From NCBI GenBank assembly GCA_963819185.1, contig CAWFVG010000003.1:223984-287983 (forward strand): a stretch of 64,000 bases of DNA, written 5' to 3'. This DNA is from Bryobacterales bacterium (GTDB taxonomy: Bacteria; Acidobacteriota; Terriglobia; Bryobacterales; Bryobacteraceae). A program made the translations under genes and the position numbers. A model generated the notes under the pieces. That model did not search any database and was not told where the DNA came from. It worked only from the letters and a program-made list of their open reading frames with translations. Positions 3,682 to 25,041 of this stretch are shown here, piece after piece (position 1 is the stretch's first letter; each line of letters starts with the position of its first letter).

Positions 3682-5301
3682 CTATGCGGGGTCGACCTCC
3701 GGAAACTCAGCCAGGAGATCACCAAAATCCGAACCCGCAGTTCCGTCCCCATCCTCCAGGTCTTCGTCGTCCCCGTATTCGAAGGTCGGTCGTTGAGAGG
3801 TTGCTTCCAGTTCATAGAAACTCACGTCGTGTGAGCGGAGAATCCGAAAAAATCGATCAACCTGAACGTAGTCCCCACCCCCGGCGGCTTGGAGCCAGCC
3901 TTTATGAATCGCTTCGTAAGCCAAGAGCCAATGTTCCGAATAGAGATGCTCAGCGCTCATGTACGAACTCCAAAGATCGGTGTCCAGAGTCGGCAACAAT
4001 CCCTCAGACTCTAGGTGCAAGGCCGTCAGCGCTACAAGATCGTCGTCCATTAACGCGATGGCCTCGACCGCTGCTTCCCCGAGGAGGACGTTCTGGCTCT
4101 TCGCGACCCATAAAGCCCAGAGCACCTCATTGCCTTGCTGAAGTTGAGCATGATGAACGCAGACTGCATCCAACGTGGCCTTTAATGCGGAAGCGTTGAT
4201 CGGGCTCGATGAATTGAGCTCTAGAATGTCGAACAGAACCTTGAGCGTTGCCGGCTCTGCAATGACGGATCTAAGCAAAAGAGCTTCACATAAAGGCCAG
4301 TTATCGCCGTCGATAGCAGCGGTGCCGACCATTCGGGCGGCGTATGTTAGAACATTGTCATGCGGAAACTGTCTGGCCAAATCCGAGGCGGCTCCGAACA
4401 ACTCAAGGAGTTGCGTCTCTTGCCTTGTCCCAGCAGCGTTAAGGCCGCGCGACCGAAGTTCAGGTTTCCACTGGGGCTCTAGAGCCTCTGGTAATTGGCT
4501 GATCTCGGTCTTAAAATCGTTAACTTCCAACTCGAGGGAAACGCCGACCTCATGGAGCGCGGCCAGTGCTTTCTCTGCCTCCTGATAGGAGTCAAAGTAC
4601 AGGTGAAAATCATCGATATATCTTGTACCAGAAAGAGGTCCGAGCCGTGATTCGAGTGCGCAATCAACGGCGGTGCCGACGATTTCGCCCACAAGGAAGG
4701 AGGTATCTGGACCGATTGGAATTCCTCCAGTTTGCTTGTCCTGACTTTCCCTTATACGCTCATCGATTCGATTGCCAAAAAGCGTCGCATCTTTCCTGGC
4801 TTGCGCCTTCCCGTGGATCGCCCACGGTATCGCATGAGTGTAGATCGAGGGGTAAAATCGGCTGAAATCAGCCTGTAGAACATAGCGCTTTCCGACAGAT
4901 CGAAGCGCTCGCGCGCGGGGCAGCTCGGATTTTGGGCGCTGGCTCTCAAGCGCGCGGACCGTTCCAATCACGGGGCGGCTAAGGGATATGGTGGAACGAG
5001 CGCAAAACTGGTCTAGACTCTTCCAGTGCTTCGCCAACTCACGGGAAACAAGTACGTGATGAAGCGGATTCGGAAGGGAAAGCAGCCTTCGCGAGAGCTT
5101 CCGCTTGGGCACCGAATGCCGCGCGGTGCGCGCACGCGGAAAATTTGCGCGCTTGCCTTTCTTTACCGGATACTGGCTGCGTATATGAGTGAGAATTTCC
5201 GGATACGCGGCTCGAAGGTTGCTTACGATGAAGGGCGGGGTTAGGTGGTCGGGCAAGTAGCCGAGCTCCAGGAAGTTGAGGGTCAACTCCACGCATTTCA
5301 T
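3682..5301 (-). CDS. Stand-alone reverse transcriptase, UG/Abi (defence-associated) type with C-terminal helical domain and acidic tail
   Basis: 539 aa. Ordered RT motifs are SLPNPLHHV, LQADFSRFYPSIYTHAIPW, GIPIGPDTSFLVGEIV, RYIDDFHLYF and LEVNDFKTEI. About 250 aa of Leu/Ala-rich region follows, then the tail EYGDDEDLEDGDG. AT-richer than its neighbours. Confidence 0.85.
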   Translation of the reverse strand: MKCVELTLNFLELGYLPDHLTPPFIVSNLRAAYPEILTHIRSQYPVKKGKRANFPRARTARHSVPKRKLSRRLLSLPNPLHHVLVSRELAKHWKSLDQFCARSTISLSRPVIGTVRALESQRPKSELPRARALRSVGKRYVLQADFSRFYPSIYTHAIPWAIHGKAQARKDATLFGNRIDERIRESQDKQTGGIPIGPDTSFLVGEIVGTAVDCALESRLGPLSGTRYIDDFHLYFDSYQEAEKALAALHEVGVSLELEVNDFKTEISQLPEALEPQWKPELRSRGLNAAGTRQETQLLELFGAASDLARQFPHDNVLTYAARMVGTAAIDGDNWPLCEALLLRSVIAEPATLKVLFDILELNSSSPINASALKATLDAVCVHHAQLQQGNEVLWALWVAKSQNVLLGEAAVEAIALMDDDLVALTALHLESEGLLPTLDTDLWSSYMSAEHLYSEHWLLAYEAIHKGWLQAAGGGDYVQVDRFFRILRSHDVSFYELEATSQRPTFEYGDDEDLEDGDGTAGSDFGDLLAEFPEVDPA

Positions 5302-15391: not shown

Positions 15392-16711
15392 ATGATACCG
15401 CCTACTTTACGTAGTCCCGGCGCGTTCCGCTTCTGGATCGCGGTTATGCTCACCGCGGCCGGCACGGGCGTAGGCGCCATAGCGCTGACGCGTCTCTTGG
15501 AATTCACGCAGCGCTTGGCCTGGGGAGGCTCGGGCGTCAACCTGCTCGAAGCCGTTTCAGCAACGGCGGCGTCGCGGCGTGTGCTGGTGCTGTTGGGCGC
15601 GGGTGTTCTCACAGTCGCGGGACAGATCGTGCTAAGAAGGCTGGCCAGCGGCAATGGAATCGACATCGCGGAGGCGATCTGGTTCCATGCGGGGCGCCTG
15701 CCCGCTCTGCGGACCCTGGGTAGCGCGGTCCTTTCGGTCATGGTGGTGGGGATGGGCGTGTCGCTCGGGCGCGAAGGAGCGCCCAAGCAAGCGGGCGCGG
15801 TGCTGGCCAACTTCTTTGCGGACCGTTTGCGCCTCTCCGATGAGGCGCGGCAGCTACTGGTGGCGTGCGGCTCGGGTGCGGGCATGGGAGCGGCGTACGG
15901 AGTCCCGCTGGGCGGGGCTGTGTTTTCGTTGGAGGTCGTGCGCGGCGCGCTGGCGCTCCGCTTCGTTCTGCCGGCGCTGGCCACCTCCATCATCGCGACC
16001 GCAGTGTCCTGGCTGGGATTGCGGGACGCGCCGACCTACATCATCCCCGATTTTCACAACTCGGCCTCCGTGCTGATCTGGGCGCTGCTGGCCGGACCGG
16101 TCGCAGGGCTGGCTTCGGTAGGATATGTTCGCGCCGTCGCATGGGCCGATCGCAATCGTCCGGAGGGGTGGCAGCGTTGGGTTGCGCCCATCGTGGGACT
16201 GGCGCTGGCCGGCTTCGTTTCCACGCGGTTCCCGCAGGTGCTGGGCAATGGCAGGGACATCTCGCAACTCGCCTTTATGGGTCAGGCCGCGCCGCTGCTG
16301 CTGCTGGTAATGCTTGCGCTGCGGCCTCTATCGACCACTCTATGCTTGCGGGTCGGGACGCCGGGAGGCCTGTTCACGCCCTCGTTGACCGTCGGCGCCA
16401 TGCTGGGCGGAGTCTTGGGCTACGGCTGGTCCTTGGTCTGGCCCGGCGTTCCCCCCGGGCTCTTCGCGTTGCTCGGCGCCGCGGCGGTATTGGCCGCCAC
16501 GACGCAGGGACCGGTTTCGACCGTGATCCTGATGATGGAGCTCACCGGGCGCGACCGTTCCTTCATCCTTCCGATGCTGGTCGCGGTGGTTACCGCGACG
16601 CTTACCTCACGCACCATCGAATTGCGCTCCGTCTACGAGGCCCGCCTGACCGATGAACAAGTACAGCAGCGGCGCAGGGCTCGGGAGGCCGGCGGAGTCG
16701 TCACCGCTTGA
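15392..16711 (+). CDS. ClC family voltage-gated chloride channel/antiporter
   Basis: 439 aa, multi-TM. GVSLGREGAPKQAG, GSGAGMGAAYGVPLGGAVFSLE and GTPGGLFTPSL are ClC selectivity-filter motifs. Confidence 0.9.
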   Translation: MIPPTLRSPGAFRFWIAVMLTAAGTGVGAIALTRLLEFTQRLAWGGSGVNLLEAVSATAASRRVLVLLGAGVLTVAGQIVLRRLASGNGIDIAEAIWFHAGRLPALRTLGSAVLSVMVVGMGVSLGREGAPKQAGAVLANFFADRLRLSDEARQLLVACGSGAGMGAAYGVPLGGAVFSLEVVRGALALRFVLPALATSIIATAVSWLGLRDAPTYIIPDFHNSASVLIWALLAGPVAGLASVGYVRAVAWADRNRPEGWQRWVAPIVGLALAGFVSTRFPQVLGNGRDISQLAFMGQAAPLLLLVMLALRPLSTTLCLRVGTPGGLFTPSLTVGAMLGGVLGYGWSLVWPGVPPGLFALLGAAAVLAATTQGPVSTVILMMELTGRDRSFILPMLVAVVTATLTSRTIELRSVYEARLTDEQVQQRRRAREAGGVVTA

Positions 16712-17969
16712 CCGCACCCGGAGTAACTCGCACCACGTCTTCGACGAGATCCGCGGCTTTGCGGACGCCTCCGGCCTCCTGAATCGCGGCGGCCATCCGC
16801 TGTGCGGATTTGCGATAGCCGGATTCCTCCAGCACCTCGCGGGCGAGGGCGCGCAAACCGCCCGCGTCCAGCCTTCCTAGCGCCAGGCTCCGCCCCGCTC
16901 CGCAATACTCCACCCGCCGTGCGATGGCGGGCTGCTCATAGGTGATCGGGATGGTGACCATCGGCACGCCATGGGCCAAGGAATCGAGCACCGTGTTCAG
17001 ACCGGCGTGCGTGATGGTCAGTTGCGCTCGAGCCAAGATCTCCCATTGCGGCGCGTACCCGACGACAACGGGATTCCCCGGGAGCGATGCGGTCTGCTGT
17101 TCCGTTAGTCCGCCGCCGTGACTCAGAACCAACTGCACGTCCAATTCCCGGCACGCTTCCGCGATACAGCGGAACACCGGCTCGCGGCGATTCTGAAGGG
17201 TTCCCAACGACGCGTACACCAAAGGTCTTCCATCCAACCTGTCCCAGGGAAACGGAATGACGTTGGGCTGCGGGCGCCGCAAGGGACCCACATAATGGAA
17301 GTTTTTCTGCGGGCCGCAGCGGGGAAAATCGAATTCCCGAGGCAATTGCGAGATCTGCGCCCGTTTCGAAAATGACTCCTCCGCGGACGCAAGCCGCGAT
17401 AGTCCCCACTCCCTCCGGTATCGCGCCACGACGCGCGCAACCGGCCGCAGGGTCCACTCCGACATCGCGTATCCGATCCTGTTCCGCCAGCGCGCCCAAC
17501 CTGTGTCGCGATACCGCCAATCCGTGAACGGCGGCGGGAGGCATGGGTCTCGATTAATCGGCAGCGCGTTTGCAACCGTGATAAAGGGAAGGCCGAGGTG
17601 TTCAGCAATCGCGCCGCCTGCAGGTTCCATCTGATCCACCAGCAGTGCATCTATACCTGCGCTACGAATCGCCGTGGGGCCATCGCGGAGCATCATCTCG
17701 CTGCTCCGTGCGACGGCGCGAATGGTGAAGCGCAGCGCCCTCATACCCTCCAGTTCAGACAGGCGCGCCAGCGATTGCGGCAAGGATCCTGGCGGGTGAT
17801 CGCTCTCTCCAACAACCGCGAACTCGATTCCCTGCGCGAGGATTTGCGCTTCCAGATCCCGCACCTGGAAGCACGTCACGCGATGTCCGCGCGCGATCAG
17901 CTCGCGGCCCAGGGCGCCGAAGGGATGAAGGTGGCCGGCCACCGGCGGGGTGATAATCCCGAAATGCAT
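16701..17969 (-). CDS. GT1-family UDP-glycosyltransferase (MGT/CrtX-like)
   Basis: 422 aa. MHFGIITPPVAGHLHPFGALGRELIARGHRVT at the N-terminus and a THAGLNTVLDSLAHGVPMV..P donor-binding motif. Confidence 0.85.
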   Translation of the reverse strand: MHFGIITPPVAGHLHPFGALGRELIARGHRVTCFQVRDLEAQILAQGIEFAVVGESDHPPGSLPQSLARLSELEGMRALRFTIRAVARSSEMMLRDGPTAIRSAGIDALLVDQMEPAGGAIAEHLGLPFITVANALPINRDPCLPPPFTDWRYRDTGWARWRNRIGYAMSEWTLRPVARVVARYRREWGLSRLASAEESFSKRAQISQLPREFDFPRCGPQKNFHYVGPLRRPQPNVIPFPWDRLDGRPLVYASLGTLQNRREPVFRCIAEACRELDVQLVLSHGGGLTEQQTASLPGNPVVVGYAPQWEILARAQLTITHAGLNTVLDSLAHGVPMVTIPITYEQPAIARRVEYCGAGRSLALGRLDAGGLRALAREVLEESGYRKSAQRMAAAIQEAGGVRKAADLVEDVVRVTPGAVKR

Positions 17970-17975
17970 CCTGAA

Positions 17976-19643
17976 CTAGAGTTCCACGGATCGCAGCCCG
18001 GAAGATGAAGACCCCGCGCGCAGGCCGAGCCCATAGCGGCCCGGCGCCAGGATGCCCGCCGGGTCGGCCAGGTGCTTGATGCCTTCCACGAAGCGTTCGT
18101 ACGCTCCCCCAGTCCGGAGCCCCACCATGGATTGAATCCCCAGCCGGTAGGGAATATAACCTTTCTCGGTGAGCTCTTGGCGGAGCTGTTCGTAACAGGA
18201 AAGCGCGCGCTCGTCTTCTCCGGGCTGGTCGCGATCGAAGGTGATGGAGATCACGCAGATCAGAGCGCGTTCTGTGATCAGCGTTAGGGAGAGCAGCGGC
18301 TCGAAGCCATAATTCAGCATGATCCGGCTGGAAATTTCCGTCATCGCCAGTGCATGCCGTCCCTCGGCGGGCGCCACGGGAGAAAGCCACAGCAGCCCGC
18401 AACGGTCGCGGTCCGGATTCATCTGCGCCGGTGGAGGAGTGCGTTTTCGCCAGTAGGCGCTTTTGAGAGGCTGATCCGTCGGCGCCCCTTTCATCAAGCC
18501 GTAGACCGGCCGCACCAATTCGAGCGCGCGGCTGATGTCCCACCGTGCGAGCAATCCGAACAGGCCGGAGAAGCGGGAGGCCAGCGCCAGCCGCCGGTCG
18601 TCCAGAAACTGAAGCCGGGTGACGTTTCCGTGCAGCGCTTTCCGCACCAGCCGCCGCGCCTCCGCCACCTGCCCACGCGATCCATACAACCCCCCGGAGC
18701 CGTTCCACGCGCCGAAGTTCATCTTCTCCCGGAACCCGCCCATCTGCTCAGGCTTCAAGGGAACCGCGCCACCGGTTTCTTGCCAAGGATACTGTTGAAT
18801 TCCGGCCAGGACCTTGTAATCGTTACCGACGTGAATCGCACTGCGCAGAGTTCCGTTCAGGCGCAGGGGACGGAGTGCGTCGATCAAGGCAGGTAATCCG
18901 GCGGGATCGTCGCAGCGGAAAAAGAACGCCTGGAAGTGCTCCGGAGCCGGCATCAGCCACAGCGTCATGCGCGTGACTACACCGAAGTTGGACTGCGCGA
19001 ACAGGCCATCCAGGCTCGGTCCCAGGCCCCAGCGGAATACCGGCGCGGACAGAGCGCCGGGAAAGCGCGCCGCTCCTGTTTCCAGCATTTCGCCGGTGGA
19101 AAGGACCACCTCAAAGTCGCACGCCTGGGCGATGTGCTCGCCGTAAGGTGTGTGCCCGAACCCTCGCTCCAGCGTGTTGCCTACCAGGCTGCAATCCGGA
19201 CTGGACCCGGTGCCATCGATCCATAACCGCGAGTTTCGCGCGCGCAAAAACTCGAACAACTGCCCTTGCGTTACGCCCGGCTCGACCGTTACGTAGCCCA
19301 GTTCCTCGCTGAAATCCAAAATCCGGCTCATGCGGCTCAAATCCAGCAGCACGCAACCATCAGTCACCGGTACGCCCGAGCCGTATCCCCAGTTCCGGCC
19401 GGAGCTCACTGGGTAAAGGGGAATACCGAAGTGGCTGGCGATGCGCAGCGTTTGCCGGACTTCCTCGCGTGTGGCCGGCCTTAGAATCGCCGGGATGCGT
19501 TGTTTGACCGGAAAGGTGGCAGTAGCGGCGGCGCGTAATTGGTCTTCGGAAGCCACCACGTTCTCTGTGCCGAGAACCAGCTCCCACTGCCGAAGGGCAG
19601 CCTGATCGAGCATGCGTCTACCTTCTTCCCGGTGCGTAGGCAC
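17976..19643 (-). CDS. FAD-binding oxidoreductase (PCMH/VAO-type FAD-linked oxidase)
   Basis: 555 aa. PAILRPATREEVRQTLRIASHFGIPLYPVSSGRNWGYGS and LLDLSRMSRILDFSEELGYVTVEPGVTQGQL are typical of the FAD_binding_4 domain. Confidence 0.85.
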   Translation of the reverse strand: MPTHREEGRRMLDQAALRQWELVLGTENVVASEDQLRAAATATFPVKQRIPAILRPATREEVRQTLRIASHFGIPLYPVSSGRNWGYGSGVPVTDGCVLLDLSRMSRILDFSEELGYVTVEPGVTQGQLFEFLRARNSRLWIDGTGSSPDCSLVGNTLERGFGHTPYGEHIAQACDFEVVLSTGEMLETGAARFPGALSAPVFRWGLGPSLDGLFAQSNFGVVTRMTLWLMPAPEHFQAFFFRCDDPAGLPALIDALRPLRLNGTLRSAIHVGNDYKVLAGIQQYPWQETGGAVPLKPEQMGGFREKMNFGAWNGSGGLYGSRGQVAEARRLVRKALHGNVTRLQFLDDRRLALASRFSGLFGLLARWDISRALELVRPVYGLMKGAPTDQPLKSAYWRKRTPPPAQMNPDRDRCGLLWLSPVAPAEGRHALAMTEISSRIMLNYGFEPLLSLTLITERALICVISITFDRDQPGEDERALSCYEQLRQELTEKGYIPYRLGIQSMVGLRTGGAYERFVEGIKHLADPAGILAPGRYGLGLRAGSSSSGLRSVEL

Positions 19644-19676
19644 CGGGACCAGTGACGGCCCCTGACTGCCGAAAAA

Positions 19677-20525
19677 TTATTGTACAGCGAGCGCCAAATT
19701 TTCTTCAAATCCCAGAGCGCCGCGCATTGCGGAAAGCGCGAATGGCGCCGCGGACGAAGAGTCTCTCCGGATGACCGGCGCTGTGAGCCAGTAGGCGCAC
19801 AGATCGCTGACCCAGGATTCGAAACGCGGGTTGGCGTGGATCGAATCGAAGCGCAGAACTTCCATCTCGCACCGGTATTGAGGATCGTAATAAGGCGGCA
19901 GGTCGGTCCGATTCGCCTGCAACGAAGATCCTCCGATGCGCCGGAGGATCTCCGAGGAGCAATGCCTGCGTGTAGCGGTAGTGATTCCGATGCAGCCTCC
20001 CAGCGCGCGAGCCAACCCGTACGTCGCCAGCGCGATGCGCAAGGCTTCGCGCGACCGCCGCAGTTCCGGCGCCAGGGCCCAGCCGCCCACTTCGACATAG
20101 GAGACCCCGCGCCGCCGGGCTTGCTCGACATCGCGGGCCACAGCGGCGCGAAATGCCATGCCCCATTCGCCCGACGACGCCAGCGCCGCGTTTCGAACCG
20201 ACAGGCGATGGAACCCGATGGTGTTCGGGTGAGCGACATAACGGGAACAGCCGGCCACTTCCCCCTTTTGGTCCAGCGCTACCACATGCCAGGCGTGCTC
20301 ATCGCCGGAAAGCCGGTGACGGCCGTCCGTGCTGAGTTGATTCCCCTCAATGGCCCCGTCCTCCAGATACAGCTTCCCCCGCAAGCGCTGTATGCCGGAC
20401 AGCAGTATTTCGTGGCGGGAGGAATTCGATTGGACGTTTTCGAAACGCCGCGGAACGAAAGCGTCGGGAGGAGCCAGCAAGACGAGCCTCTCGCAACGGA
20501 ACTCCTTCTTATGGCAAGACTTCAT
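19677..20525 (-). CDS. LuxI/FeeM-fold GNAT N-acyl synthase-like protein (resembles the PEP-CTERM/exosortase-associated acyltransferase family)
   Basis: 282 aa. Blocks RLRGKLYLEDGAI, DGRHRL, EVGGWAL, TATRRHCSSEILRRIGG and LPPYYDPQYRCEMEVLRF. About 45% identical by eye to the ORF at 22264-23097. Confidence 0.6.
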   Translation of the reverse strand: MKSCHKKEFRCERLVLLAPPDAFVPRRFENVQSNSSRHEILLSGIQRLRGKLYLEDGAIEGNQLSTDGRHRLSGDEHAWHVVALDQKGEVAGCSRYVAHPNTIGFHRLSVRNAALASSGEWGMAFRAAVARDVEQARRRGVSYVEVGGWALAPELRRSREALRIALATYGLARALGGCIGITTATRRHCSSEILRRIGGSSLQANRTDLPPYYDPQYRCEMEVLRFDSIHANPRFESWVSDLCAYWLTAPVIRRDSSSAAPFALSAMRGALGFEENLALAVQ

Positions 20526-20843
20526 AGCGGACCCGTTCCGGATTCAAAAATCAGACCGGCCGGAACGGCGCGCGTCAGGAAGCTGTTGTTAAGAATGAAT
20601 CGGTCCCTGACTGGGTGGCCTTTAGTTGCGCGGACCTTAGAGGGCCCTGGTACAACCCCGAACCCAGTACTATTTTTCGCTTAAGCCTGTTACCGCACTT
20701 TTCCCAGGCCACCGGCAGGCACGTTTCCGGGTATCGGGGTGCGTGGCGGGCTGGCAAAATTCATCTCGTGGACCGGTTCCAACCACGCGGACACCGGTTC
20801 TGAACGACAAGAAACGGAGGCCCGGAAAGGTAGAACAAACCTG

Positions 20844-21653
20844 ATGAAATATCTAACTCTATTTGCATTTTCTTTAGCCGCGCCGTCCTTGACGATGGCC
20901 TCGCCTCTTTTAGGCGGGTTTGACCTGGACGCCGGCGCCGGCCAGCAAGTCGCAGTAGGGCCTTGCATGGTAGGTGCAACATCCGCCGATTGCATCGACT
21001 TTGACTTTAGCGGCACGAAGAGCATACCAACGCCGCCGAACGCCCCGATCGCCACCAGCGGGACTGTGGACGGAACCGGGGACAGCGCGGTGTTTACGCT
21101 TGCTTCCGCATACATGGGAGATCCCAGCGGAAGTGACGTCACCGTCGCCGACCTCAACAGCATCACCGACCCGACGGGCGGCGCGTCAACCTTGGCAACG
21201 CCCTTCATCACTTTTGCCGGGGAGCCTTGGACCATTACCCTGACCGAGGTCATGCCCGGAAGTTACGGGGCCGCTTCCTGCCTTGCCGGGACCAGCACGT
21301 CTACGGACCAGTGCACGCCGCCTGGCACTCCCTTTAATGAATCGCAGACATCCTGCGCCACCAGCACCATCGGAGTCACAACCTGCGACGTCGCCGTGAA
21401 CTTTAACTTCACAGGCGTCGCCAACGACGGCAGCGGTAACAAGACCTTGGTCTCCGGAACCTTTGGGACCACGTTCACCGGCACGACGTTGCAGCAGGTC
21501 AATGAGGCGATTCTAGCCGGTCACGATGTGGTCACATCGGACAGCGCCACCATAGGGTTCACAGCCGTCCCGGAGCCGGTGACCTTCGCGCTAGTCGCAG
21601 GAGGTTTGTTCTTCCTGGGTCTGGTCGGACGGAAGAATCCTCGACAGCTTTAG
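20844..21653 (+). CDS. PEP-CTERM sorting domain-containing secreted protein
   Basis: Internal ATG gives MKYLTLFAFSLAAPSLTMA (signal peptide). Thr/Gly/Ser-rich body. C-terminus VPEPVTFALVAGGLFFLGLVGRKNPRQL is PEP motif + TM + basic tail. Confidence 0.85.
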   Translation: MKYLTLFAFSLAAPSLTMASPLLGGFDLDAGAGQQVAVGPCMVGATSADCIDFDFSGTKSIPTPPNAPIATSGTVDGTGDSAVFTLASAYMGDPSGSDVTVADLNSITDPTGGASTLATPFITFAGEPWTITLTEVMPGSYGAASCLAGTSTSTDQCTPPGTPFNESQTSCATSTIGVTTCDVAVNFNFTGVANDGSGNKTLVSGTFGTTFTGTTLQQVNEAILAGHDVVTSDSATIGFTAVPEPVTFALVAGGLFFLGLVGRKNPRQL

Positions 21654-21857: not shown

Positions 21858-22208
21858 ATGCTTGTCGCCGAAACATTGTCTGCCCCCGCCACGCAACGCT
21901 ATCTGTGCATGGACACGTTGCCCGCCACCTTCGCGCGCGGGACTCCGATGGCTGCAGACGTTGCAGACCACGTAATTCTTATCGAAGTGTGGGAAGCGGG
22001 AGGCGTCCTGCAAACCGAATGCGCGCCGGAGCGTGGCTCGCGAGTGCGCCTTTCTACTTCGCAGGGAATTGTCCGGGGCCGGGTCAAGTCGTCCGCCGGC
22101 GATGACTACGGCTATCTGGTGGAATTCTCCGTGGATCCCGCGGAGAATTGGTTTCCGGATTCTTATCGCCCTCCCTATTTGCGCCCCGCAACCGAGAGCC
22201 GGGAGTGA
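21858..22208 (+). CDS. Hypothetical small protein (about 116 aa), possibly beta-barrel/PilZ-like
   Basis: First ATG after the terminator/repeat array within ORF 21681-22208 (MLVAETLSAP..). No diagnostic motif recognised. Start is uncertain. Confidence 0.4.
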   Translation: MLVAETLSAPATQRYLCMDTLPATFARGTPMAADVADHVILIEVWEAGGVLQTECAPERGSRVRLSTSQGIVRGRVKSSAGDDYGYLVEFSVDPAENWFPDSYRPPYLRPATESRE

Positions 22209-22227: not shown

Positions 22228-22270
22228 CCAGTGCCTAGCCCCCAGTGCTTAGCCCCCCAGTGTTTAGCCC
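22228..22270. repeat. Tandem 14/15-bp repeat CCAGTG(C/T)(C/T)TAGCCC(C) x3
   Basis: Units at 22228-22241, 22242-22256 and 22257-22270, in the convergent gap. The last unit contains the stop codon of the minus-strand gene 22264-23097. Confidence 0.9.
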
Positions 22271-23097
22271 ATGGACGCGACGTGGAACCTTGGGAGTTGG
22301 ACCGTACCCGTGCGTGGCGCCGCGACCCACTCGGGTTCGGCCGCGACGTTGGTTATGACCGCTGCGGTTCGCAGGGTCTCCTTGATCTCTTCGATCCAGA
22401 CGCTATACCGCGGATTCGGAGCCCACGAGTAAAACCGCAACAGCTCCATCTCGCACTCATATTGGGGATCGTAGTAAGCCGGCAGCGCCGAACCGCGCCA
22501 CTCCAGCGGCCGTCCTCCCATCCTCCGCAGGATCGACGCGGAGCCGTGCCGACGCGTCGCGCTGCTCAACCCAATTGCGCCGCCCAACTGCTGCGTTAAG
22601 GCATAGGTTGCCAGCACCATGCGCAAGGCCTCCGCAGTCCCTCGAATTTCCTCATCCAGAGCCCACCCGCCAAGCTCCGAGACCGGACAATCCAGCCGTT
22701 TGGACAGGTCCAGCTCGGCATCGATCGCGCCGCTCAACTTTTCGCTCCATTCCCGTGACAGGGCCAGGGCGGACTGCGCAACGCCTAGCTCGCGGAATGA
22801 TGTTCCGGCCGGATACTCTTTGTAGCGTTTGCAACCGCATACTTGTGCGTTGCCATCGAGGACCAATAAGTGCCAACTGGTTCGATCGCTCTCCAGCCGG
22901 TGACGGCCGTCCACCAAGTGCCAAGGCTTGATCGCCCCGTCTTGCAGATAAACCCGTCCACGAAGCTTTTGTGTTTCCGCCAGCATCTCCGCATGCTGCT
23001 TCGCATCGACACGGACATTGGCGAATCCGTCCGGGACCGCGCGCTGCGATGGAGCCAATAACAATAATTCTCGCGACGTAGACACAGTTGGACTCAT
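22264..23097 (-). CDS. LuxI/FeeM-fold GNAT N-acyl synthase-like protein, paralog of 19677-20525
   Basis: 277 aa. KLRGRVYLQDGAI, DGRHRL, ELGGWAL, SATRRHGSASILRRMGG and LPAYYDPQYECEMELLRF. Confidence 0.6.
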   Translation of the reverse strand: MSPTVSTSRELLLLAPSQRAVPDGFANVRVDAKQHAEMLAETQKLRGRVYLQDGAIKPWHLVDGRHRLESDRTSWHLLVLDGNAQVCGCKRYKEYPAGTSFRELGVAQSALALSREWSEKLSGAIDAELDLSKRLDCPVSELGGWALDEEIRGTAEALRMVLATYALTQQLGGAIGLSSATRRHGSASILRRMGGRPLEWRGSALPAYYDPQYECEMELLRFYSWAPNPRYSVWIEEIKETLRTAAVITNVAAEPEWVAAPRTGTVQLPRFHVASMG

Positions 23098-23504
23098 CTT
23101 CGCGCAGCGTTCCTTTCTTGGGTTGGATACTAAGTGGTTGGCATTGGCAATTTTTTGCCCACAACGGCTAGTCGGGCTAAGTCTGCTATTCTCAGTGACC
23201 GATCCGCTTTCCCTGGCCGTACGTTGGGTCGAAGTGCTTCTTTTCTACCCGACTCTACCCAAGCTGTCTCTGTAAGATTTTCTGCCCGCGTCAGAGCGAG
23301 GCGACGCTGCGGCGCACCTTCTCAAGTGGAAATGTTTGCAGTCACGCTGCACAAACTTATGCATCGCCCGCGACTATACGCGACCACGGTGCGCCCAGTG
23401 CGGTATTCCAATCACGTCTAGTTCTGGGAACAACGCTTACGGGTCTATTGCATGGGAGCGGGCGCGCTCCGGCGTGGCAAGACCACTGAAATACGGAATC
23501 TGGT

Positions 23505-24254
23505 TTGCAACGCGCTTGGAAGATGCACCGAACTGCACACCGGAATTCTCTCCACAAACTACTGCCTGCGGCTCCGCTATTGCGCCGCCCGTCGAATCGA
23601 GCCTCACACGCCAGCATCGCCGCGCAGGTTCTGGTAGCGCAAGAGAGCGAACGCCGCAGAGTCTGCCGCGAGATGCACGACGATCTGGCTCAGCGTGTCG
23701 CTTTGCTTGAGTTCGAAATCGAAAGCATGAAGCGGCGTTTCAATTCCCAGCCGCAGGTGCTTCCGGAGCTCGACTCGCTGCGCGGCAGCGTGGCCATGCT
23801 CGCCGAAGACGTTCATCGCATTTGTGAACGCCTGCACCCGGTGGTGCTGGATAACCTCGGCCTGGTTCGCGGCGTCGAGTTTCTGTGCCAGGACCAGTCC
23901 AGGGCCAGCACTGCCCACGCCGTGTTCTCACACGGAAATATTCCAAAACAGCTTCCCGCCAATGTGTCGCTGTGCATCTACCGGATCGTCCAGGAGGCGC
24001 TCAGCAACGCCACGAAATATTCCGGAGCGGCCGAAGTTAACGTGGCGCTTCGCACAGAGGGCGGTGGAATCCGCGCCATCGTAAGCGATGCCGGCCGCGG
24101 TTTCGACCCCCAAGCGGACGGTCACTCGGGTTTGGGCTTGGTGTTTATGGAGGAGCGGGTCAAGCTGCTGGGCGGACGCTGCCGCATCACATCCGCACCC
24201 GGCAAGGGCACACGGATCTCCGCTTGGGTCCCGATCGGACCTGGTCCGAAATGA
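23505..24254 (+). CDS. HisKA_3-type histidine kinase with no recognisable sensor or TM domain
   Basis: 249 aa at most (first start after an in-frame stop). H-box ESERRRVCREMHDDLAQ about 40 aa from the N-terminus. N-box QEALSNATKYSGA. G-boxes DAGRGFD and GLGLVFMEERV. Confidence 0.85.
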   Translation: MQRAWKMHRTAHRNSLHKLLPAAPLLRRPSNRASHASIAAQVLVAQESERRRVCREMHDDLAQRVALLEFEIESMKRRFNSQPQVLPELDSLRGSVAMLAEDVHRICERLHPVVLDNLGLVRGVEFLCQDQSRASTAHAVFSHGNIPKQLPANVSLCIYRIVQEALSNATKYSGAAEVNVALRTEGGGIRAIVSDAGRGFDPQADGHSGLGLVFMEERVKLLGGRCRITSAPGKGTRISAWVPIGPGPK

Positions 24255-24422
24255 ATGGCTCATGTCCAATGACGGCTAGCGCCATTCGCACTGAAACCAT
24301 GCTTGCGAGCGCCTTGGGCGATTGCGGCAGCACACTCTCCTGAGGAGCCGGGACAGGTGACGGACACTATCCCTGACCGGGTGGACGGAACCGGAACCGG
24401 CTCTTCAGGGCTGTCATCGCGC

Positions 24423-25041
24423 ATGCCGCGCATCGTCATTGCCGACGACCACCTTCTCATGGCCCAAGGCTTGGCGAAGTTGTTGGCGGAGGATTTTTAC
24501 GTGGCGGCGGCGGTAAACAACGGGCGGGACTTGCTGGCGGCCGCGGCCAAGCATACCCCTGACCTGGCTTTGATGGACGTTCTGTATGCCGGAGATGACC
24601 GGCGTGGAGACCGCACGCAAACTCCGCCGCGTCGCGCCGCTCTGCAAGGTCATTCTGATCAGTATGTATGGCCAGGCCGAGTTTGTACGGGAAGCGTTCA
24701 GCGCGGGCGCCTCCGGTTATCTGTTGAAATCTTCCGCTAGCGCGGAACTCCATGGCGCCATCCGCGAAGTAATGGACGGAAACGTCTACGTCAGTTCCAT
24801 GATCGCCAGAGATGTTCTGGCGACCCTGCTGACGCCGCCTCCGGCGGCTCTAAGCCCGCGCGAGCGCGAAATTCTGGCGCTGGTGGCGGAGGGATGCTCC
24901 GCCAAGGAAATTGCCGGGCGTCTGCACATCGCCGTGAAGACCGCCCAATTCCACCGGACCAATATCATGACCAAGCTCGGGATTCACTCCACTGCGGAAT
25001 TGACCAAGTACGCGCTGGGTCACGGCATCGTCTCGTATTAA
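24423..25041 (+). pseudogene. NarL/FixJ-type response regulator (REC + LuxR/GerE HTH) split by a +1 frameshift just after the phospho-acceptor Asp
   Basis: Frame 0 reads MPRIVIADDH..PDLALMDV. The +1 frame from 24586 reads MPEMTGVETARKL..GASGYLLK..LSPREREILALVAEGCSAKEIA. There is one extra nt within CTGT at 24582-24585. Confidence 0.75.

Follow-up and report, generated by a model that had tools for sequence, protein, structure and literature searches.

The stretch of DNA analysed here, hereafter the window, comprises 64,000 nucleotides of a contig from a Bryobacterales bacterium (Acidobacteriota; GCA_963819185.1, contig CAWFVG010000003.1, positions 223,984 to 287,983), and our subject is a set of three consecutive minus-strand genes within it that may encode a short biosynthetic pathway. 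Gene A (19677-20525, 282 aa) codes for an acyltransferase with the LuxI/FeeM fold, which we propose to be an N-acyl-tyrosine synthase. It is followed by gene B (17976-19643, 555 aa, with a GTG start), a flavoenzyme of the 4-phenol-oxidising subgroup of the VAO/PCMH family and a candidate N-acyl-tyrosine oxidative decarboxylase or dehydrogenase, and by gene C (16701-17969, 422 aa), a uridine diphosphate (UDP)-dependent glycosyltransferase of the GT1 family (MGT/OleD/YjiC-type) and a proposed phenol O-glycosyltransferase. The coordinates of the open reading frames (ORFs) leave gaps of 33 bp between A and B and 6 bp between B and C, exactly as described in an earlier note on this DNA, in which the three genes had been recognised as a compact operon. 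Independent gene calls on the source contig (ENA ERZ25039458 contig_59887, 547 kb) recovered A, B and C likewise, with the start of B placed at Met11 (giving a protein of 545 aa and an A-B gap of 63 bp). The operon structure is supported by these short gaps and by the lack of any terminator-like site at the A-B and B-C junctions. At the other end, a ClC channel gene (15392-16711, plus strand) converges on C and overlaps its 3' end, and the transcription unit should therefore stop with C. Gene A is also covered by an antisense ORF of 334 aa that gave no family match; the GC content at third codon positions is higher in the A frame (0.72, against 0.64 in the antisense ORF), favouring the minus-strand frame for A.

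Sequence profiles recognise the product of gene A poorly. The Pfam FeeM model (PF21926) matches residues 120-174 only (E=0.0022, 18.2 bits), below its gathering threshold of 27 bits; the Autoind_synth model (PF00765) gave no match at E<=1, which does not place A among the acyl-homoserine lactone (AHL) synthases; and no NCBIfam family, TIGR03694 (PEP-CTERM/exosortase-associated acyltransferase) included, matched A or its paralog A' (see below) at E<=1. Among 30 members of the A family, 16 match FeeM at E<=0.1 (the best at 3.2e-5) and one matches Autoind_synth (0.0024), and the sub-threshold matches of the family are confined to FeeM, Acetyltransf_5 and Autoind_synth. An AlphaFold2 model of A built from 30 sequences (predicted local distance difference test, pLDDT, 87.9; predicted template modelling score, pTM, 0.83) was compared with the PDB using Foldseek and retrieved BjaI (4.6e-7, TM-score on the target 0.64), RpaI, TofI, MesI, LasI and FeeM (6.7e-5). 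Judged by this model, A has the fold of the LuxI/FeeM structural superfamily of GNAT-like acyltransferases. The assignment of A to LuxI/FeeM in the earlier note thus stands for the fold but not for membership of a curated family, since of the profiles named there FeeM responded only below threshold and Autoind_synth and TIGR03694 did not respond.

Homologs of A number at least 1434 at 90% clustering, and all those named among the matches listed are called "hypothetical". An exhaustive search with a profile of the family (HMMER, 1.84e9 protein representatives) found only 825 relatives (representatives at 50% identity) and reached neither the LuxI nor the FeeM families; A therefore forms a self-contained family. 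A genome scan with A yielded 79 loci, all of them in metagenome-assembled genomes (MAGs) of Acidobacteriota (Bryobacterales, other Terriglobia and Vicinamibacteria). By sequence, the A family is therefore isolated and unannotated, and it has so far been seen only in Acidobacteriota (79/79 genome loci). The profile was also run against the sequences of the PDB, where only spurious MHC matches appeared and were discarded, and the longer, possibly fused members of the family carried no informative partner domain. At the C terminus of A (19677-19760, minus strand) a conserved tail (L..AVQ) comes after a variable linker of low confidence, and residues 260-282 have a pLDDT below 50; this tail may be involved in partner binding or autoregulation.

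The ORFs of the 79 loci were clustered together with the window (80 sequences) and then re-scored by tblastn, and the gene neighbourhoods obtained in this way help to weigh a first alternative. The top structural matches of A, BjaI and RpaI, are coenzyme A (CoA)-dependent signal synthases, and RpaI makes p-coumaroyl-homoserine lactone (HSL). Gene A might similarly use S-adenosylmethionine (SAM) and an acyl-CoA to make an acyl- or aryl-HSL-type signal, with B and C tailoring or inactivating a phenolic, p-coumaroyl-like molecule. The single Autoind_synth match within the family would fit such a role, as would the presence of a LuxR-family (GerE) regulator nearby. However, the A of the window lacks that match, and the regulator is a kinase-paired response regulator (REC+GerE) with no autoinducer-binding domain reported, which was found in no more than 11 of the 80 clustered sequences. 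No receptor family was found among the recurrent neighbours and, besides, the pairing of A with B is directly explained by the precedent of FeeM and FeeG. We consider a signal synthase of the HSL type quite improbable here.

The family of gene B, which had been described as a PCMH/VAO-type oxidase dependent on flavin adenine dinucleotide (FAD), was readily confirmed. Its N-terminal domain matches FAD_binding_4 (PF01565; 94.1 bits, 7.7e-27), and its best solved relative, PchF (PDB 1DII/1WVE), is aligned over both the N- and the C-terminal domains (E=2e-83); eugenol oxidase and VAO come next (1e-55 to 1e-66). On these sequence matches, B belongs to the 4-phenol-oxidising subgroup of the VAO/PCMH flavoproteins. 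Besides the FAD domain, B has in common with PchF the Tyr/Tyr/Arg triad that binds the phenolate. Tyr87 (in the motif GRNWGYG) and Tyr499-Arg500 align with the respective positions, which we take to be Tyr95, Tyr473 and Arg474 in PCMH, and the three residues are invariant across 52 B orthologs.

The surroundings of the flavin are different, and we have used Table 1 of PMC7617285 as a key to interpret them. Where the oxidases have their covalent His, B has Leu417, and at the position of the covalent Tyr384 of PchF it has Asp/Asn409; this second assignment is less certain, since the alignment covers residues 333-414 only in part. At the position of the flavin-N5 pair, Ala154-Pro155 in PchF, the alignment and the 52 orthologs show Gly146-Ser/Ala147. 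Neither a covalent flavinylation residue nor an N5 pair signature was thus found in B and its orthologs. Judged by these three sites, B looks non-covalent and does not have the signature of either the oxidase or the dehydrogenase clades, which suggests a clade of flavoenzymes that oxidise 4-phenols with an unusual N5 environment and a predicted non-covalent FAD. B differs from PchF also in that its cap domain (333-414) contains about 30 inserted residues, that no gene for a cytochrome subunit adjoins it and that it lacks a recognisable signal peptide. A set of ORFs that had clustered with B, provisionally "B2", was set aside as a single-linkage artefact; they are actually FA_desaturase proteins.

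Gene C is recognised by the Pfam UDPGT model (1.5e-18, 67.3 bits, above the cut-off of 19.5) and hence belongs to GT1, as had been suggested. The MGT model TIGR01426 covers its full length (9-413; E=2.4e-58) with a score of 198 bits that is below the 260-bit cut-off. Its solved relatives are YojK-type GT1 enzymes, OleI/OleD, YjiC and CalG, whose acceptors are small lipophilic molecules, and C appears as an MGT-type GT1 akin to enzymes that glycosylate phenols and macrolides.

The order of A and B could be examined in the 71 loci with 2.5 kb or more of sequence downstream of A. In 51 of them A is immediately followed by B in the same orientation, and in 59 B is found anywhere in the locus; the median A-B gap by tblastn is 139 bp, and the adjacency spans three acidobacterial classes. 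The 56 full-size loci contain B in 46 cases, a gene of the U1 type (described below) in 49 (88%), C in 23 (41%) and a fatty-acid-desaturase-like gene (PF00487) in 23; A, B, C and U1 occur together in 22. The co-conservation of the three genes, on which the earlier note had made its interpretation depend, therefore holds for A and B, while C is an accessory gene (23/56) that is usually separated from B by the desaturase. The direct B-C junction of the window recurs only in its closest relative, L001. The desaturase-like gene codes for a membrane protein of about 350 aa, is missing in the window and in L001, and lies between B and C in L015, L022, L024, L030, L041, L044, L045, L048, L050, L052, L058, L070, L073, L076 and L078; A-B-desaturase-C is the commonest extended order (15 loci). 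Also recurring in these neighbourhoods are genes for a MacB/FtsX/HlyD exporter and for two kinds of methyltransferase, one PEMT-like and one of class I.

These patterns also bear on the possibility that the three genes are unrelated neighbours, B being a catabolic 4-alkylphenol or p-cresol oxidase acting on lignin-derived aromatics, C a detoxifying glycosyltransferase and A some unrelated GNAT-like protein. The best solved relatives of B (PCMH, eugenol oxidase, VAO) are indeed catabolic, and MGT enzymes of the type of C are often promiscuous. Yet the same-strand adjacency of A and B is maintained in 51 of 71 loci and across three classes, the recurrent neighbours include neither a conserved cytochrome c subunit nor a family of aromatic catabolism, and B is devoid of the covalent-FAD residues and N5 signatures of the catabolic clades, all of which makes independent roles for these genes very hard to believe.

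We propose instead that A, B and C make a sugar-capped, oxidised N-acyl-tyrosine lipid. This general scheme seems to us somewhat better than an even bet, and our confidence in the exact product is lower. It is modelled on the precedents of FeeG/CndG and hyellamide, discussed at the end, and its firm ground is provided by the enzyme classes, the conserved phenolate site of B and the linkage of the genes. The pathway would be a cytoplasmic small-molecule route to a tyrosine-derived lipid. In its first step, A would move a fatty acyl group from acyl-acyl carrier protein (acyl-ACP) or acyl-CoA onto the amino group of L-tyrosine, giving N-acyl-tyrosine; we infer both donor and acceptor, although, with B being an oxidase of 4-phenols, the choice of amino acid is narrowed to tyrosine or another phenol like it. 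In the second, B, an enzyme of known class with a presumed substrate, would take a hydride from the benzylic carbon to its FAD and produce a p-quinone methide, which most likely would lose CO2 to give an (E)-N-acyl-4-hydroxystyrylamine enamide, as in the case of FeeG and CndG. Formation of an N-acyl-dehydrotyrosine or of a beta-hydroxy product would be less likely outcomes. Since a conserved gene for a cytochrome partner is not seen among the recurrent neighbours, B would probably pass its electrons to oxygen. Finally, C would place a sugar from a UDP-sugar presumably on the phenolic OH, as proposed for HyeH, and the result would be an amphiphilic glycolipid. In the relatives of the window, the membrane desaturase-like enzyme, the methyltransferases and the MacB-type exporter may extend the pathway further. 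The fold predicted for A, the subfamily to which B belongs, the kind of glycosyltransferase encoded by C and the conserved association of the genes thus support the cassette for an oxidised, glycosylated N-acyl metabolite that the earlier note had envisaged.

Several observations weigh against this scheme. A passes no curated model (FeeM at 18.2 against 27 bits, and none of NCBIfam, TIGR03694 included), and because its profile misses LuxI and FeeM by HMMER, it is from fold and context that acyl transfer and tyrosine specificity are deduced. B is likened to FeeG, CndG and HyeB by subgroup and by their descriptions, and its residues at the flavin N5, Gly146-Ser/Ala147, depart from both published signatures, oxidase and dehydrogenase (PMC7617285). 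C is absent from 59% of the full-size loci, and there is no ACP or acyl-activating gene in the cluster. The scheme as a whole is built on sequence, predicted fold, gene context and analogy.

The most constant neighbour of A is U1 (20844-21653, plus strand), which is transcribed divergently from it across a spacer of 318 bp. Its product is a secreted protein with a signal peptide and a C-terminal PEP-CTERM tail, VPEPVTFALVAGGLFFLGLVGRKNPRQL, in which the P-E-P motif, the transmembrane helix and the basic cluster are all present; 62 of 64 members of the U1 family have a tail with this architecture. The dedicated profiles respond below their thresholds (NCBIfam PEP-CTERM models, 5.8e-5; Pfam PF07589, 13.9 against a cut-off of 20.7). 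An AlphaFold model of U1 is all-beta (pLDDT 83.7), and a fold search of the PDB with this model gave no significant match (best E 0.039, TM about 0.1). The co-conservation of a PEP-CTERM protein points to a role of the locus at the cell surface or in biofilms.

A closer relationship can be imagined, in which the enzymes serve the PEP-CTERM protein, either because the lipid made by A, B and C is bound or attached to U1 after exosortase processing or because A and B modify U1 itself. It would account for the constancy of U1 (49/56 full-size loci, with the PEP-CTERM signal in nearly the whole family, as counted above). A link between genes for N-acyl amino acid synthases (NAS) and PEP-CTERM/exosortase genes was noted by Craig et al. 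2011, as cited in PMC7293339, and the stieleriacine cluster also has a PEP-CTERM gene (PMC7293339). Nevertheless, there is no invariant tyrosine in U1 for B to act on; A, B and C show no signal peptides recognisable by eye, yet U1 is exported; neither exosortase nor exopolysaccharide (EPS) genes were found among the window genes scanned; and the fold search with U1 gave no lipid-binding match. That the A-B(-C) product is a dedicated lipid partner of the PEP-CTERM protein, joined to the processed protein or carried by U1, is in our opinion unlikely. If true, it would provide a mechanistic reason for the NAS-PEP-CTERM/exosortase linkage, noted since 2011, and would do so with a minimal arrangement, two genes plus substrate, that is present in 43 of the 56 full-size acidobacterial loci. 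The locus is a very compact instance of the NAS/PEP-CTERM gene linkage and makes the linkage question testable.

Downstream of U1, and between it and A', lies U2 (21858-22208, plus strand), a gene for a small protein of 116 aa that is conserved in 14 related loci by tblastn and has no match in Pfam or NCBIfam. A' (22264-23097, minus strand; 277 aa) is a paralog of A with about 46% identity to it; it is monocistronic and is transcribed towards U2, and in no case does B follow one of its clear orthologs (those sharing 50% identity or more with A'). Upstream of A' there is a two-component system formed by a HisKA_3 sensor histidine kinase (23493-24254, plus strand), kept beside the locus in the closest relatives, and a NarL/LuxR-type response regulator (REC+GerE; 24357-25041, plus strand). 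The latter is split near 24581-24586, with the REC part in frame 3 (24357-24581) and the remainder in frame 1 (24586-25035), by either a frameshift or an assembly error. The description of the three genes as a minimal cassette was consequently too narrow, the locus having also the PEP-CTERM gene (in 49 of 56), the A paralog and, in close relatives, the NarL-type two-component system.

Directly after the two-component system, between about 25900 and 31000, integrase, HipA/HipB, Fic and Replic_Relax-like genes are found, and this region at the edge of the cluster resembles an integrated mobile element. Far on the other side, a 539-aa ORF (3682-5301, minus strand) has a weak match to the reverse-transcriptase model RVT_1 (E=5.7e-6, below the gathering score). 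The 9-bp inverted repeat (20533-20568) to which attention had been drawn upstream of A, with arms CCGTTCCGG/CCGGAACGG at 20533-20541/20560-20568, does exist but carries no signal. Across the window, 95 inverted repeats of 9 nt or longer occur within 40 nt, the hairpin has a z of -1.32 (23 of 200 shuffles fold equally well), the closest related loci lack the repeat upstream of A, and an Rfam search of the region gave no match. Being at chance level and unconserved, it was rejected as a regulatory element.

Acidobacteriota rank among the most abundant soil bacteria and, to our knowledge, next to nothing has been described of their small-molecule chemistry; among the papers searched, none ties Acidobacteria to chemistry of the kind proposed here. 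The A family is a probable entry to a tyrosine-derived (glyco)lipid that would be accessible with three genes.

The combination of genes had not been recognised in the earlier note as a described pathway, but analogues do exist, namely FeeM+FeeG, CndG and hyellamide (PMC11350588, PMC11959600). FeeG and CndG are 4-phenol-oxidising VAO/PCMH enzymes that convert an N-acyl-tyrosine into a p-quinone methide and, by CO2 loss, into a 4-hydroxystyryl enamide (PMC11350588, section 5.2.1), and there are no solved structures in the FeeG/CndG/HyeB oxidative-decarboxylase clade (PMC11350588). The fee cluster, from soil environmental DNA, pairs in FeeM and FeeG the same families as A and B, and its chemistry (N-acyl-tyrosine to quinone methide to enamide) is the one that we predict for A-B (PMC11350588). 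The similarity has limits: A is far from FeeM in sequence (a sub-threshold match), and fee is without a glycosyltransferase, whereas the locus in the window has one together with a PEP-CTERM protein and an A paralog. The fee cluster reportedly consists of 13 genes, its own ACP and acyl-activating enzymes included (Brady et al. 2002). A dedicated ACP or activating enzyme is mentioned in PMC11959600. In the biosynthesis of chondrochloren, CndG, likewise of the 4-phenol-oxidising VAO/PCMH subgroup, turns an N-acylated tyrosine into a styryl enamide by decarboxylation (PMC11350588), but it acts in a polyketide synthase/nonribosomal peptide synthetase (PKS/NRPS) pathway, and the window locus is without PKS/NRPS genes.

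The N-acyl-dehydrotyrosine pathways (stieleriacines, thalassotalic and kyonggic acids, tyrazolones) combine NasY/TyzA with a ThiF-like TyzB and a nitroreductase-family TyzC (PMC12479983). Their oxidase is thus of a different family from the VAO/PCMH-type B, and no ThiF-like gene was found among the recurrent neighbours of the A loci. On the side of likeness, genes for a fatty-acid desaturase and for a PEP-CTERM protein are present in the stieleriacine cluster too (PMC7293339, PMC12479983). Hyellamide, from Hyella patelloides, is an O-glycosylated enamide derived from N-acyl-tyrosine with the sugar on the phenol (PMC11959600), and the cluster proposed for it, hye, comprises an acyltransferase, a FeeG homolog and a glycosyltransferase (PMC11959600). 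Its proposed logic, N-acylation of tyrosine, oxidative decarboxylation and glycosylation of the phenol (PMC11959600), is that of our scheme, in which B would correspond to HyeB and C to HyeH as matched by their descriptions. The acyltransferase of hye belongs, however, to the SGNH/GDSL family, whereas A has the LuxI fold, and hye, which is from another phylum (cyanobacterial), adds a sugar O-acetyltransferase. The authors of that work found no further cluster of the hye type with a glycosyltransferase (PMC11959600). Taken together, the logic of the chemistry proposed for the window is known, and here it would fall to an unannotated synthase family and an atypical oxidase clade linked with a PEP-CTERM protein.

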